From Escherichia coli (GTDB taxonomy: Bacteria; Pseudomonadota; Gammaproteobacteria; Enterobacterales; Enterobacteriaceae), in NCBI RefSeq assembly GCF_003334315.1, contig NZ_QOWR01000013.1: a stretch of 64,000 nucleotides of DNA; one strand, 5' to 3'. The translations under genes and the position numbers were made by a program. The notes beneath the pieces are model-generated. The model was not told where the DNA came from and searched no databases. It saw only the letters and a list, made by a program, of their open reading frames with translations. Below are positions 1-59,170 of this stretch, in pieces (the first letter of the stretch is position 1; each line of letters begins with the position of its first letter).

Positions 1-96
1 CGCGAGGCATCGTCTTAACGAGGCACCGAGGCGTCGCATTCTTCAGATGGTTCAACCCTTAAGTTAGCGCTTATGGGTTTTACCCCCGCGTGGTGG

Positions 97-249
97 CTAC
101 TTCTTCGATTCGTAAGCGAGAACTGCCTTAAACTCCATACCACGTTCTCTGATACTCAACTCACACAACGAGTCGCCTACCATCAGCGTGAATCCCAGTA
201 CTGTAAAACACAGCACTATGATTGCCACAAGGGCATATTTTGTCAGCAT
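97..249 (-). CDS. Hok/Gef-family type I membrane toxin, 50 aa (possibly the hokX-type locus next to cysH)
   Basis: Small minus-strand ORF below the track size cutoff: [50 protein letters not shown]. Hydrophobic N-terminal helix followed by the LCE..R...E.KAVLAYE tail typical of Hok/Gef toxins; GGGAGG Shine-Dalgarno about 7 nt upstream of the ATG. Confidence 0.6.
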
Positions 250-347
250 GTCTTGCCTCCCTGCAAAGAAGAGACTAACATTCGAATTGTTTGGGTTCGA
301 ACGTAAGCCTCAGGTTGATAGAAATATCGCCTGGGGCTTTTGTCCAT
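243..347 (-). CDS. mok-like leader ORF (34 aa) overlapping the start of the hok-like toxin
   Basis: [37 protein letters not shown] ends with TGA overlapping the toxin ATG (ACATGCTGA), the arrangement used for translational coupling in hok/mok loci. Inference from layout only. Confidence 0.35.
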
Positions 348-513
348 CTGGAACCTCGCGAATGCTTAACGCCAGACAGCCTCAAGCACCCGACGCCATT
401 CTATACCTGATAATTCTTCCAGCGGCGTTCACGTTTAAAATCAGGAATACTGCTCGCAAAATAAAAACGCCCCCATCATTTCTGACAGAGGCGTTTAATT
501 TATCCGGCAATAT

Positions 514-1248
514 TTACCCTTCGTGCAATCCACATTCCCTTTTTAAGCCAAAGAAACGTGTTTCTTCTTCCGACATGCCAGGTTCCCATTTACGGGTTGT
601 ATGGGTATCACCGACCGATAAATATCCTTCATCCCATAATGGGTGATATTTCAGGCCATGTTTTTGCAGGTACTGATAAATAGTTCGGTTATCCCAGTCG
701 ATAATCGGCAGCACTTTAAATACGCCACGCTGAATTGCCAGCACCGGTAAATTGGCGCGACTGCCGGATTGTTCACGGCGCAGGCCAGCAAACCAGGTTT
801 GCGCATTCAGTTCTTTCAGAGCCCGGTTCATCGGTTCGACTTTGTTGATGTCATTGTACTTTTCAATGCCTTCAACGCCCTGCTCCCACAGTTTTCCGTA
901 GCGTGCTTCCTGCCAGGCTGCGCTTTCGGTAGCACGGTACACTTTCAGGTTGAGCTTGAGTTTGTCCGTTAACTCGTCAATAAAGCGGTAGGTTTCCGGG
1001 AACAAGTAACCCGTATCGGTGAGGATCACCGGAATATCCGGGCGAATTTGATTCACCAGATGCAGGCTCACCGCCGCCTGAATGCCAAAGCTGGAAGAAA
1101 GTACATATTCACCGGGCAGATTATCCAGCGCCCAGGCTACGCGGCCTTCAGCGTCCAGTTTTTCCAGTTCGGCGTTAGTTTCCGCCAGCGCCAGAATGCG
1201 ATCTACCTTCGGCAGTTCGTTCAGGGCGTTTAGATCGAGTTTGGACAT
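514..1248 (-). CDS. cysH: phosphoadenosine phosphosulfate (PAPS) reductase
   Basis: Track ORF 514..1287; product recognised as CysH; start placed at internal Met ([14 protein letters not shown]...) to give the 244-aa protein. Confidence 0.95.
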
Positions 1249-1265: not shown

Positions 1266-1310
1266 CCTTGCCTGATGCGACGCTCACGCGTTCTTATCAG
1301 GCCTACAAGA
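1266..1310. repeat. REP-like palindromic element between cysH and cysI
   Basis: GCCTGATGCGACGCT...CTTATCAGGCCTAC motif typical of enterobacterial REP units. Confidence 0.5.
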
Positions 1311-23870: not shown

Positions 23871-24206
23871 CTACCCAATCAGTACGTTAATTTTGGCTTT
23901 AATGAGTTGTAATTCCTCTGGGGCAACTGTTCCTTTCTTCGTTGCTCCTCTTGCCCGCCAGGCGATACTTTTTACCTGATCAGCTAACGCTACGCCATCA
24001 CGTTCCTGACCGGATAAAACAACTTCGAACGGATATCCTTTTGATTGCGTTGTACAAGGAACACACAGACACATACCTGTTTTGTTGTTGTACATGAAAG
24101 GACTCAGGACAACAGCTGGACGATGTCCAGCTTGCTCGCTACCTTTTGTCGGGTCAAAATCAACCCAAATCAGATCGCCCATATCGGGTACGTATCGGCT
24201 TACCAT
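23871..24206 (-). CDS. mazF: MazF endoribonuclease toxin
   Basis: 111-aa ORF recognised as MazF; start overlaps the mazE stop. Confidence 0.96.
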   Translation of the reverse strand: MVSRYVPDMGDLIWVDFDPTKGSEQAGHRPAVVLSPFMYNNKTGMCLCVPCTTQSKGYPFEVVLSGQERDGVALADQVKSIAWRARGATKKGTVAPEELQLIKAKINVLIG

Positions 24207-24454
24207 TACCAGACTTCCTTATCTTTCGGCTCTCCCCAGTCGATATTCTCGTGGAGGTTTTCCGGCGTGATGTCGTTGACCAGTTCAGCAAGCGTAAATA
24301 CGGGCTCTTTACGCACTGGCTCAATAATTAATTTGCCATCCACCAGGTCAATCTTCACTTCATCATCAATATTCAGATTGAGCGCCTGCATTAACGTAGT
24401 CGGGATCCGCACCGCCGGTGAATTTCCCCAACGCTTTACGCTACTGTGGATCAT
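24206..24454 (-). CDS. mazE: MazE antitoxin
   Basis: 82-aa ORF recognised as MazE. Confidence 0.96.
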
Positions 24455-24531: not shown

Positions 24532-26766
24532 CTAACTCCCGTGCAACCGACGCGCGTCGATAACATCCGGCACCTGGTTGAGTTTACCCAGCACGCGCCC
24601 CAGCACTTGCAGGTTGTAAATCTCAATGGTCATGTCGATGGTCGCCAGTTGCTGTTTGGTGTCGCTACGGCTGGCAACGCCAAGCACGTTCACCTTCTCG
24701 TTGGCGAGAATGGTCGTGATATCACGTAACAACCCACTACGATCATTAGCTACCACGCGGACCACCAGCGAATATCCGGCGGAGTAGCTCTCACCCCATA
24801 CCGCGTCAACAATGCGTTCTGGCGCATGGGAGCGCAGTTCCGCCAGTTGTTCGCAATCGGCGCGGTGTACTGAAATACCGCGCCCCTGGGTAATGAAGCC
24901 GACAATCTCATCTCCAGGAATCGGCTGGCAGCAGCGCGCGATGTGGTGCATCAGGTTGCCAACACCTTCGACTACCACGCGACCGTTATCTTTACTGCGG
25001 TTTTGCGGCGTGTAGCTTTTTTGCTGAAGTTGCTTCAGCGCGGCGGCGTCCTGCTCTTCGGCACTCGGCTTATTAAATTGCGATTGCAGGAAGTTCACCA
25101 TCTGATTGAGACGGATATCCCCGCCACCAATCGCCGCCAGCAACTCGTCGACATCATTGAAGTTGTAACGCGGCAGCAGATGTTTTTCTGCTTCTTTCAG
25201 GCTGATCCCCAGATGTTCCAGCTCGTCGTCAAGGATTTGCCGCCCAGCCAGAATGTTTTTGTCACGGTCCTGTTTACGGAACCAGGCGTGAATTTTCGAA
25301 CGCCCACGGCTGGTTGTGACGTAACCGAGGTTTGGGTTTAACCAGTCACGGCTGGGGTTCGGCTGTTTCTGGGTGATAATTTCAATCTGGTCGCCCATCT
25401 GCAGCTGGTAGGTGAACGGCACAATGCGCCCGCCAATTTTTGCCCCAATGCAGCGGTGTCCGACATCACTGTGGATGTGGTAAGCGAAGTCCAGCGGCGT
25501 TGATCCCGCAGGCAAATCAACGACATCACCTTTCGGCGTAAAGACGTACACTCGGTCGTCAAAGACCTGGCTGCGTACTTCGTCGAGCATTTCGCCGGAA
25601 TCAGCCATCTCTTCCTGCCATGCAATCAGTTTACGCAGCCAGGCAATCCGGTCTTCATGTCCCGAACGTGCGCCGCCAGCAGCCGCGCCCTCTTTATATT
25701 TCCAGTGCGCAGCAACACCCAACTCTGCATCTTCATGCATCTGTTTGGTGCGGATTTGGATCTCAACGGTTTTGCCACCTGGCCCCAGAACCACGGTATG
25801 AATAGACTGATAACCGTTTGGTTTCGGGTTAGCGACGTAATCGTCAAACTCATCCGGCAGGTGGCGATAGTGAGTGTGCACTATCCCCAGTGCGGCATAA
25901 CAATCCTGTAAACGCTCGGCGACAATACGTACCGCACGCACATCAAACAGCTCATCAAAGGCGAGGTTCTTTTTCTGCATTTTACGCCAGATGCTGTAGA
26001 TGTGTTTCGGACGACCATACACTTCCGCTTTAACGCCTTCAGCTTTCATCTCAGCGCGCAGATGACCAACGAACTCTTCGATGTAGTGTTCGCGGTCGAG
26101 ACGCCGTTCATGCAGCAGTTTGGCAATTCGTTTGTATTCGGTTGGATGGAGGTAACGGAAGCAGTAATCTTCCAGTTCCCATTTCAGTTGTCCGATTCCG
26201 AGACGGTTAGCCAGCGGTGCGTAGATGTTGGTACACTCTTTTGCCGCCAGTACACGTTCATCTTCCGGCGCATCTTTTACTTCGCGCAGATGAGCAATAC
26301 GCTCCGCCAGTTTGATGACTACGCAGCGAAAATCATCGACCATCGCCAATAACATCCGGCGAACGTTATCGACCTGTTCGGAGGAAACAGAATCAGTGTG
26401 CGTCGCTTTCAGCTGGCGGATCGCCGCCATATCACGCACGCCGTGAATAAGGTTAACGACCGACTTACCGACGCTCTCACGCAGCACATCTTCGCTGACT
26501 ACGTTGGCATCCGCCAGAGGGAAAAGCAGCGCCGCCCGCAGCGTGTCAATGTCCATACTTAATGTCGAGAGGATCTCCACCATCTCAACACCACGCCACA
26601 ATAACAGACTGGCATCCGGATGCCCCTGCGTCTGTTGCAGACAATACGCCCAGGTTTCGGCTAAGCACTCACACGACTTCTGGCTGGTAATACCCAGACT
26701 TGCGATCCATTTTTCCGGATCAAATTCACCAGCCTTATTGATATGTGCACTTCTTACCGCAACCAT
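24532..26766 (-). CDS. relA: (p)ppGpp synthetase I
   Basis: 744-aa ORF recognised as RelA. Confidence 0.98.
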   Translation of the reverse strand: MVAVRSAHINKAGEFDPEKWIASLGITSQKSCECLAETWAYCLQQTQGHPDASLLLWRGVEMVEILSTLSMDIDTLRAALLFPLADANVVSEDVLRESVGKSVVNLIHGVRDMAAIRQLKATHTDSVSSEQVDNVRRMLLAMVDDFRCVVIKLAERIAHLREVKDAPEDERVLAAKECTNIYAPLANRLGIGQLKWELEDYCFRYLHPTEYKRIAKLLHERRLDREHYIEEFVGHLRAEMKAEGVKAEVYGRPKHIYSIWRKMQKKNLAFDELFDVRAVRIVAERLQDCYAALGIVHTHYRHLPDEFDDYVANPKPNGYQSIHTVVLGPGGKTVEIQIRTKQMHEDAELGVAAHWKYKEGAAAGGARSGHEDRIAWLRKLIAWQEEMADSGEMLDEVRSQVFDDRVYVFTPKGDVVDLPAGSTPLDFAYHIHSDVGHRCIGAKIGGRIVPFTYQLQMGDQIEIITQKQPNPSRDWLNPNLGYVTTSRGRSKIHAWFRKQDRDKNILAGRQILDDELEHLGISLKEAEKHLLPRYNFNDVDELLAAIGGGDIRLNQMVNFLQSQFNKPSAEEQDAAALKQLQQKSYTPQNRSKDNGRVVVEGVGNLMHHIARCCQPIPGDEIVGFITQGRGISVHRADCEQLAELRSHAPERIVDAVWGESYSAGYSLVVRVVANDRSGLLRDITTILANEKVNVLGVASRSDTKQQLATIDMTIEIYNLQVLGRVLGKLNQVPDVIDARRLHGS

Positions 26767-37271: not shown

Positions 37272-37631
37272 AATAAAAAAAGGGAGCACTGTATTCACAG
37301 CGCTCCCGGTTCGTTTCGCAGCATTCCAGCTACTTTTGTTGCTCCCTGCTCATCCTTGACAACTTTTCCTCTGGCCTTGCGGCCAATCGTTCATCCTGAA
37401 CTATTGCTTCCTGCTCACACCACCCCGATGTGATACTTCATCCTGAAGTGTCCCTGGCCTTCCTGACCCACCGAATCATCCTGACCGGTTCTCATTCTCC
37501 ATCCTGGAGGTGTCCTTTAACGCGTCCTGCGTCATCCTCTTCGCTTCATCCAGAAGCCTTTCCCTGAAACACCATCCTGGTGTGTCCTGCAGAAGTGTCA
37601 TCATCCTGATGTTCACTTCGTTGTCTGACTC
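37272..37631 (-). ncRNA. csrB: CsrB small RNA (CsrA-sequestering)
   Basis: Plus strand carries about 18 copies of CATCCTG, that is CAGGATG / AGGA CsrA-binding motifs on the minus strand; 3-prime end is a GGGAGCGCTGTGAATACAGTGCTCCC hairpin plus U-run; 5-prime end near GAGTCAGACAACGAAG (sequence recognised from memory). Confidence 0.92.
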
Positions 37632-55811: not shown

Positions 55812-56017
55812 ACTTCCTGAGCCGGAACGAAAAGTTTTATCGGAATGCGTGTTCTGGTGAACTTTTGGCTTACGGTTGTGATGTTGTGTTGTTGTGTTTG
55901 CAATTGGTCTGCGATTCAGACCATGGTAGCAAAGCTACCTTTTTTCACTTCCTGTACATTTACCCTGTCTGTCCATAGTGATTAATGTAGCACCGCCTAA
56001 TTGCGGTGCTTTTTTTT
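55812..56017 (+). ncRNA. gcvB: GcvB small RNA
   Basis: ACTTCCTGAGCCGGAACG... with the GU-rich GTTGTGATGTTGTGTTGTTGTGTTTG region and a GCACCGCCTAATTGCGGTGC hairpin plus T-run at the 3-prime end; divergent from gcvA (sequence recognised from memory). Confidence 0.92.
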
Positions 56018-58986: not shown

Positions 58987-59170
58987 TATCCCTCACCCTA
59001 AACGCATAAATGCCTGATGCGCTACGCTTATCAGGCCTACATAACTCCTGCAATATTTTGGATTTGCATGATTTGTAGGCCGGATAAGGCGTTCACGCCG
59101 CATCCGGCATGAACAACGCGCACTTAGTCAATAATCAGGATGTGAGGTTACCCCTCACCCTGTCATATCC
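58987..59170. repeat. BIME / REP cluster flanked by short GAGGTTA(T/C)CCCTCACCC hairpin repeats
   Basis: Two inverted REP units (GCCTGATGCGCTACGCTTATCAGGCCTAC ... GTAGGCCGGATAAGGCG...GCATCCGGC) bracketed by near-identical 17-21-nt hairpin motifs at about 58987-59007 and 59147-59170. Confidence 0.6.

Follow-up and report, generated by a model that had tools for sequence, protein, structure and literature searches.

The region beside cysH in the window (the whole stretch of 64,000 nucleotides of Escherichia coli DNA that was analysed, from contig NZ_QOWR01000013.1) is, with a probability of about nine in ten, the chromosomal hokX/sokX type I toxin-antitoxin locus of E. coli, in a form interrupted by IS186. 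The presence of hokX/sokX beside cysH is already known, being annotated in RefSeq and treated in several papers, and the IS186-interrupted form is a common one in E. coli, real but ordinary. More specifically, hokX has been placed between cysH and iap and was originally noticed in E. coli B, where an insertion element has inactivated it (PMC7232551). In uropathogenic strains, hok and sokX adjoin cysH in 90%, and the rest carry sokX alone, like MG1655 (PMC12736100). The CRISPR-I arrangements have been defined by modules that include the hok sok system and IS186 (PMC3903273), and for the EHEC strain EDL933 RNA-seq reads are listed over the Rfam-defined element (PMC5331693).

A preliminary description of this DNA had reported a Hok/Gef-type toxin locus of the hok/sok kind beside cysH, and Pfam, Rfam and RefSeq all agree with it. 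The mention, in the same description, of a K-12 sokX annotation in this neighbourhood was also accurate, as MG1655 carries the ncRNA sokX (b4701) between cas3 and cysH. The span of 97-513 given there does hold the contents assigned to it, but its 3′ side is incomplete: the transcript would run past position 97 into 75-96 and then into IS186 at 1-74, an element at the window edge that had been overlooked. The features of the locus are the following.

1..74, plus strand: right-terminal 74 bp of IS186 (IS186/IS421 family), truncated where the window begins; all 74 positions (74/74) agree with the right end of K-12 IS186A
75..86, no strand assigned: 12-bp target-site duplication of IS186, GGGTTTTACCCC; the second copy is at the other end of the element (L001 4726-4737)
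75..96, minus strand: remnant of the hok mRNA 3′ UTR, with the 5′ arm and loop of a GC-rich hairpin, CGCGGGGG-UAAAA-CCCCGCG, from the native-allele alignment and the native fold
97..249, minus strand: hokX coding sequence, 50 aa, C15F variant (WP_000956460.1), from Pfam HOK_GEF and RefSeq
243..347, minus strand: upstream ‘mok-like’ ORF of 34 codons, whose TGA overlaps hok codon 2 (AUGCUGA)
261-256, minus strand: hokX Shine-Dalgarno GGGAGG, 6 nt before the ATG (249-247) and invariant in all aligned alleles
253..281, plus strand: putative SokX promoter, with -35 TTGCCT (253-258), a 17-nt spacer, -10 TAACAT (276-281) and start at G289, from sequence and the annotated 5′ end of K-12 sokX
289..347, plus strand: gene of the SokX antisense RNA, 59 nt, by homology to MG1655 ncRNA sokX b4701
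234..391, minus strand: hokX mRNA leader (Rfam RF01794), with a tac-type 5′ end GGGUGCUUGAGG (391-378), the SokX target hairpin and a conserved GAGG (mok-type Shine-Dalgarno)
398..403, minus strand: putative hokX -10 box TAGAAT, 6 nt upstream of the first G of the leader (391) and conserved in all alleles and K-12
465..496, minus strand: intrinsic terminator of cysH (cysJIH), found by terminator scan as a 14-bp stem followed by a T-run; it separates cysH from the hokX promoter
514..1248, minus strand: cysH, the next gene to hokX

The toxin gene, its leader and the antisense RNA

When window positions 1-560 were used as a megablast query against 5,426 complete E. coli genomes, the hokX region was found in about 76% of them (a single match covering at least 80% of the query in 4,145), and the matches are annotated as ‘Hok/Gef family protein | cysH’. 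RefSeq gives the same label, ‘Hok/Gef family protein’ (WP_000956460.1), to the identical ORF, again beside cysH. Strain 602354 is identical to the window across positions 1-759. The window itself is not from K-12, which is without the hok ORF altogether; K-12 strains match the window over 247-558 only.

The 50-codon minus-strand ORF, assigned earlier to the Hok family from its letters, holds up against the Hok/Gef profile: the protein matches Pfam HOK_GEF (PF01848) with E=3.5e-11, its residues 5-46 aligning to model positions 1-42 of 42, and its sequence shows a 19-aa hydrophobic stretch. HokX is a distinct paralogue and not HokA, because its scores fall under the curated cut-offs of both NCBIfam models, that of the HokA equivalog (57.7 bits, cut-off 89) and that of the Hok subfamily (41 bits, cut-off 73). 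Its identity to K-12 HokC is 39%. The Shine-Dalgarno sequence had rightly been called strong, with GGGAGG standing 6 nt ahead of the hok ATG, and the two larger ORFs said to lie antisense to the toxin on the plus strand are present, at 73..306 and 188..646. The toxin ORF was indeed too short for the ORF track, from which it is missing because its 50 aa are below the 60-aa default of the ORF lister. Length-filtered ORF tracks miss short toxin genes such as hokX; apart from its correct annotation, the occurrence of hokX/sokX here matters little, as this is a textbook-type type I module.

Seven native (uninterrupted) alleles were examined, namely that of SE11 and those of six further loci (L006-L011), the latter sharing 94-97% identity with the window across positions 75-558. 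The identical Hok protein, WP_000956458.1, is encoded by all seven, and their hok genes differ from one another at two synonymous sites only. Compared with these native alleles, the hok gene of the window has three unique substitutions, one non-synonymous (C15F) and two synonymous; as sequence changes they are compatible with relaxed constraint, which is not the same as proving it.

On the leader (158 nt, 391..234, hok-sense), the Rfam model RF01794 gives a full-length match with 113 bits and E=1.5e-26; the gathering score is 59, and the covariance-model search that had been proposed as a check thus favours the locus clearly. The strand of this match deserves attention. At the curated hokC locus of K-12, RF01794 also falls on the hokC-sense strand (L005 1854 to 1702, minus), with sokC annotated opposite. 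The family named ‘sok antitoxin’ therefore models the hok-sense leader, and strand calls taken from it are inverted.

These matches bear directly on the possibility that the small ORF is a chance ORF of the intergenic spacer and encodes nothing. It has only 50 codons, and chance ORFs of similar size are numerous nearby, but the full-length HOK_GEF match (E=3.5e-11), the flanking leader match (E=1.5e-26), the retention of an identical protein by diverged alleles with synonymous changes only, and the curated annotation across thousands of genomes make this reading vanishingly improbable.

The stretch 348-430 contains the 5′ end of the hok mRNA and its promoter. Both the hok and the SokX promoters have been placed by position and conservation, because a consensus promoter scan flagged neither of them and reported only an irrelevant site within hok. 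The two SokX hexamers are invariant in all aligned alleles, the -10 ends 7 nt before G289, and the putative promoter overlaps the ribosome-binding site of hok. In the RNA, a 16-nt single-stranded 5′ tail is followed by a hairpin of 15 bp and then by a UUUUGU tail; the predicted fold has -24.7 kcal/mol (z=-4.6), and the architecture is the same as that of K-12 SokX and SokC. A Sok-like RNA on the plus strand had been expected around 330-450; homology upholds the RNA, but its position is 289-347. Judged from sequence, SokX would be a cis-antisense Sok RNA of about 60 nt, complementary to the leader and provided with a promoter and a terminator, and we infer that it is transcribed.

Taken as a mechanism, a weak promoter that closely follows the cysH terminator would drive a minus-strand mRNA from G391, in which a 142-nt structured leader would precede the 50-aa membrane toxin HokX (249-97). 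SokX, encoded opposite the leader, would pair with it, and this pairing would prevent translation and lead to cleavage of the duplex. Rfam matches to ctRNA_p42d, Spot 42 and ncr952 at 456-556 were considered as further RNA candidates in the same interval and discarded, as they fall well short of the gathering scores and the cysH terminator hairpin accounts for them.

IS186 in the 3′ hairpin of the hok mRNA

IS186 (IS4 family; NCBI label IS186/IS421) is an element of 1.3 kb with terminal inverted repeats, and it produces target duplications of 10-12 bp. At hokX the full element, both of its ends, the 12-bp duplication and the empty site can all be identified (L001, SE11). Strain 602354 has the full element of 1,337 bp, which is 1336/1337 identical to IS186A and carries the annotated IS421-family transposase; the transposase gene is on the plus strand and outside the window. 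Matches to window positions 1-77 occur at numerous sites on chromosomes and plasmids, with as many as 22 in one genome. The empty site of SE11 reads GCGGGGTTTTACCCCCGCG, which corresponds to the GC-rich hairpin downstream of the hok stop in the native mRNA. It is in this GGGG-N6-CCCC hairpin, 22 nt after the hok stop, that IS186 is inserted, so that the hairpin is split. Because the 1,337 bp of IS186 lie in between, the fold-back (fbi) element is now 1.34 kb away from the body of the mRNA.

SaiSree et al. 2001 reportedly described G4-N6/7-C4 as the target consensus of IS186. A GC-specific insertion affinity of the element has also been noted (PMC3903273). The junction of IS186 with hokX is found in about 850 of the 5,426 complete E. 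coli genomes and the native, uninterrupted hokX 3′ UTR in 3,417, which means that approximately one in five hokX loci is interrupted at the IS186 site. In strain SW070917 (L016; compared with window 1-86, L013-L015 and L017), IS186 occupies the same nucleotide of the hairpin in the opposite orientation, and insertions at hokX occur on both Hok alleles, C15 and F15. Since the same nucleotide has been hit in both orientations and on both alleles, the insertions are independent and recurrent. A single event tied to the C15F allele was considered and rejected on the same grounds.

The hokC (gef) locus of K-12 offers a close parallel. There, IS186A interrupts the equivalent GGGG-N6-CCCC hairpin (GGCGGGGATCACTCCCCGCC) and has the same orientation; its distance from the stop codon is 19 nt, as compared with 22 nt in hokX, and both insertions have a 12-bp target duplication. 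Given that the hokX site has been hit in both orientations and the equivalent hokC site has been hit as well, hok mRNAs appear to carry in their conserved 3′ hairpin an inherent hot spot for IS186, through which these toxins would be repeatedly disarmed. In practice, an IS186-interrupted module is not to be counted as an intact toxin-antitoxin system, which affects toxin-antitoxin inventories. The state of IS186 also bears on how the neighbouring CRISPR-Cas I-E region is read, as rearrangements there are linked to the same IS186 copy.

Folding of the mRNA, the upstream frame and the regulatory state

Fold-back closure of the tac/fbi type is known from the hok mRNA of plasmid R1, and the preliminary description had proposed folding the mRNA of this locus for such elements. 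For the native SE11 mRNA, taken from the first G of the leader to the U-run (360 nt, with assumed transcript ends), thermodynamic prediction gives a fold of -129.8 kcal/mol (z=-3.8) in which nt 1-14 (GGGUGCUUGAGGCU) are paired with nt 341-354 (AGUCUCCUGCACCC). One native allele has a G-U to G-C change in this 5′-3′ closing helix. When the 3′ 40-50 nt are removed, the predicted pairing of nt 1-14 shifts locally to nt 19-32, and the shortened fold forms a hairpin whose loop is complementary to the 5′ tail of SokX. Window-type transcripts, ended either at the first position of the window or, inside IS186, 200 nt beyond the stop, give one and the same open predicted fold, with the hok Shine-Dalgarno and AUG about half unpaired. 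The proposed check thus has a divided outcome: fbi/tac-type pairing is predicted in the native 360-nt mRNA but not in the window-type mRNA. Across the predicted folds, a 3′ fbi element that pairs with the 5′ end (tac) belongs to the native alleles, and in the window allele IS186 separates it from the gene. A substitute fbi was sought at window 21-40 on the minus strand (CCUCGGUGCCU), which is partly complementary to the 5′ GGGUGCUUGAGG, and was rejected, being part of IS186 and unpaired with the 5′ end in the fold.

These predictions suggest how the native and interrupted modules would behave. In native alleles, the 5′ end of the mRNA would pair with the 3′ fold-back element (CUCCUGCACCC, then the U-run) to give a closed, inert and stable form; trimming of the 3′ end would let the 5′ end refold locally and expose the SokX target hairpin. 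The transcript of the window allele would run into IS186 without any closed reservoir form, staying open and accessible to SokX. An interrupted mRNA that is unable to form an inert reservoir, and is always exposed to SokX, would be kept silenced by the intact SokX instead of being held poised. On this model, the IS186-interrupted hokX module is probably a disarmed toxin gene. A disarmed state has likewise been proposed for K-12 hokC/gef, hokE and hokA. Of the K-12 gef/IS186 arrangement it has been reported that fbi is disrupted, that the mRNA ends in the IS and that it is still antisense-regulated (PMC3562002), and K-12 hok loci with IS elements have been described as non-functional (PMC7232551). 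Some residual killing upon loss of SokX is possible, because the hok ORF, its Shine-Dalgarno, the promoter and sokX are all intact.

That last point leads to a competing reading, in which the toxin would still be live despite IS186, with a translatable extended mRNA and SokX as the sole check, and would serve as a stress-responsive or abortive-infection-type toxin and not as a relic. Besides the intact coding sequence, Shine-Dalgarno and promoter, the half-unpaired hok Shine-Dalgarno and AUG of the predicted open fold would be consistent with this, as would the survival of an undecayed ORF in the roughly 850 genomes that keep the junction and the report that K-12 gef, with the same IS186 arrangement, is still transcribed and antisense-regulated (PMC3562002). 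It has to be set against the literature in which IS-bearing K-12 hok loci are called non-functional (PMC7232551), and against the unique C15F and the two unique synonymous changes in hok, which are compatible with relaxed constraint. Overall, a live toxin is the less probable state of the locus, yet one to be taken seriously. More distinctly improbable is a fully functional canonical hok/mok/sok system, in which the 34-codon ORF would be mok, coupled to hok through AUGCUGA, and SokX would act by blocking the initiation of mok. In favour of this, a GAGG precedes AUG-347 of the ORF by 6 nt, and AUG-347 and the first 20 codons belong to the stretch complementary to SokX (289-347). The stop of the ORF also overlaps the start of hok, and the promoter, the leader, SokX and the hok ORF are each intact. 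However, in five of the seven native alleles with identical Hok only 17-18 codons of the frame remain, AUG-347 is absent from the hokC leader while the mokC start position is CGA in hokX, the ORF is unremarkable by chance, and in the window IS186 has moved away the 3′ fold-back element on which the canonical life cycle depends.

The details of the upstream frame are in keeping with this assessment. The preliminary description had pointed to a 34-codon ORF with a stop overlapping the toxin ATG, as in hok/mok/sok loci. The ORF exists, but the resemblance is loose: it is not conserved, and at the mok start hokX has CGA. Truncation in the native alleles results from a 1-nt deletion (L006-L008) or a UAA (L009, L010), which shortens the frame to 17-18 codons next to an identical Hok, and being broken in five of the seven, the ORF is unsupported as a conserved functional element. 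Its length does not exceed chance either, as 37 ORFs of at least 20 aa occur within 2.5 kb. In the hokC/hokX alignment, the canonical mokC start position reads CGA in hokX. An in-frame extension of hok resembling mokC was also considered and rejected for want of a usable start codon, since no ATG, GTG or TTG occurs in frame upstream of hok before a UGA 21 codons upstream. A conserved mok frame that starts in the Sok target, overlaps hok and is needed for its translation, as in hok/sok systems, is thus not evident in hokX, and a literature search for ‘mokX’ found no relevant paper.

What is kept in all alleles is the last 12 codons of the upstream ORF (AUG 281-279 to UGA 245-243), a stretch on which the SokX promoter and the hok Shine-Dalgarno also impose constraint. 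The AUG of this mini-ORF falls within the 3′ arm of the hairpin targeted by SokX, its stop overlaps the hok AUG, and no other upstream frame is conserved. The SokX binding site is about 40 nt upstream of hok, and an R1-type mok frame for coupling is not evident in hokX. As a tentative and rather doubtful proposal, hokX may work without a mok of the R1 or hokC type, control by SokX being exerted through the 12-codon mini-ORF or through duplex-triggered decay alone. If true, mini-ORF or decay-only control would be a variant of the classical mok-hok coupling, and of modest interest.

Related loci and other features of the window

The hok/mok/sok locus of plasmid R1 is the paradigm of a post-segregational killing system, and hokX resembles it in its small Hok toxin and in a cis-encoded antisense RNA, about 60 nt long, which combines a 5′ tail with a terminator hairpin. 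The native hokX alleles share with R1 a 5′-3′ fold-back pairing that is relieved by 3′ trimming, in the case of hokX according to prediction. Unlike R1, hokX is chromosomal and without an evident conserved mok frame, and the R1 life cycle of a stable inert pool, slow 3′ processing and activation would not be expected in the window, where IS186 separates the fold-back element. K-12 hokC (gef)/mokC/sokC belongs to the same family, and its leader scores 118 bits on RF01794; it differs from hokX in having an annotated in-frame mokC, with an AUG 8 nt after the conserved GAGG.

The sokX locus of K-12 (b4701) is homologous to the window in promoter, leader and sokX, with about 97% identity over 247-558 and a 59-nt RNA of the same fold. 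It is an orphan antitoxin remnant, in which the toxin ORF is gone and replaced by sequence towards cas3, whereas the window has a complete toxin gene. In K-12 (L003 1300-1330, window 247), unrelated AT-rich sequence takes over from the homology right after the hok ATG and continues up to the K-12-type cas3. As the K-12 homology stops right after the hok ATG, the breakpoint of the cas-E2 module replacement is at the hok start codon.

The hokX locus of E. coli B REL606 is like that of the window in its position, in its identical Hok (WP_000956460.1) and in having IS186 at the same site, and it is 100% identical to window 1-317. E. coli B differs from the window, where nothing interrupts the leader or sokX, by an additional IS150 in sokX/leader (L012 4462-5831; window-equivalent about 311-317) and by the loss of the cas genes. 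Insertions of IS150 in sokE and sokA have been reported (PMC11551753), and together with the IS150 of REL606 the sok genes seem to be recurrent targets of IS150.

Elsewhere in the window, positions 17066-17217 hold a short CRISPR array with type I-E repeats (61-bp period, 2.5 copies). REL606 has a longer annotated CRISPR at the equivalent place, where its alignment breaks. A second toxin-antitoxin module of the window is the type II pair mazF (23871-24206) and mazE (24206-24454), both on the minus strand and downstream of relA (24532-26766). Between cysH and cysI, a REP-like palindrome (1269-1302, plus strand) gives a partial, sub-threshold match to naRNA4, with 25.6 bits against a gathering score of 59.5. 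Rfam matches at the gathering level were obtained for CsrB (37272-37631, minus), GcvB (55812-56017, plus), ES036 (CssrF; 59033-59075, minus) and a tRNA (60503-60576, plus), as would be expected for this chromosomal region.
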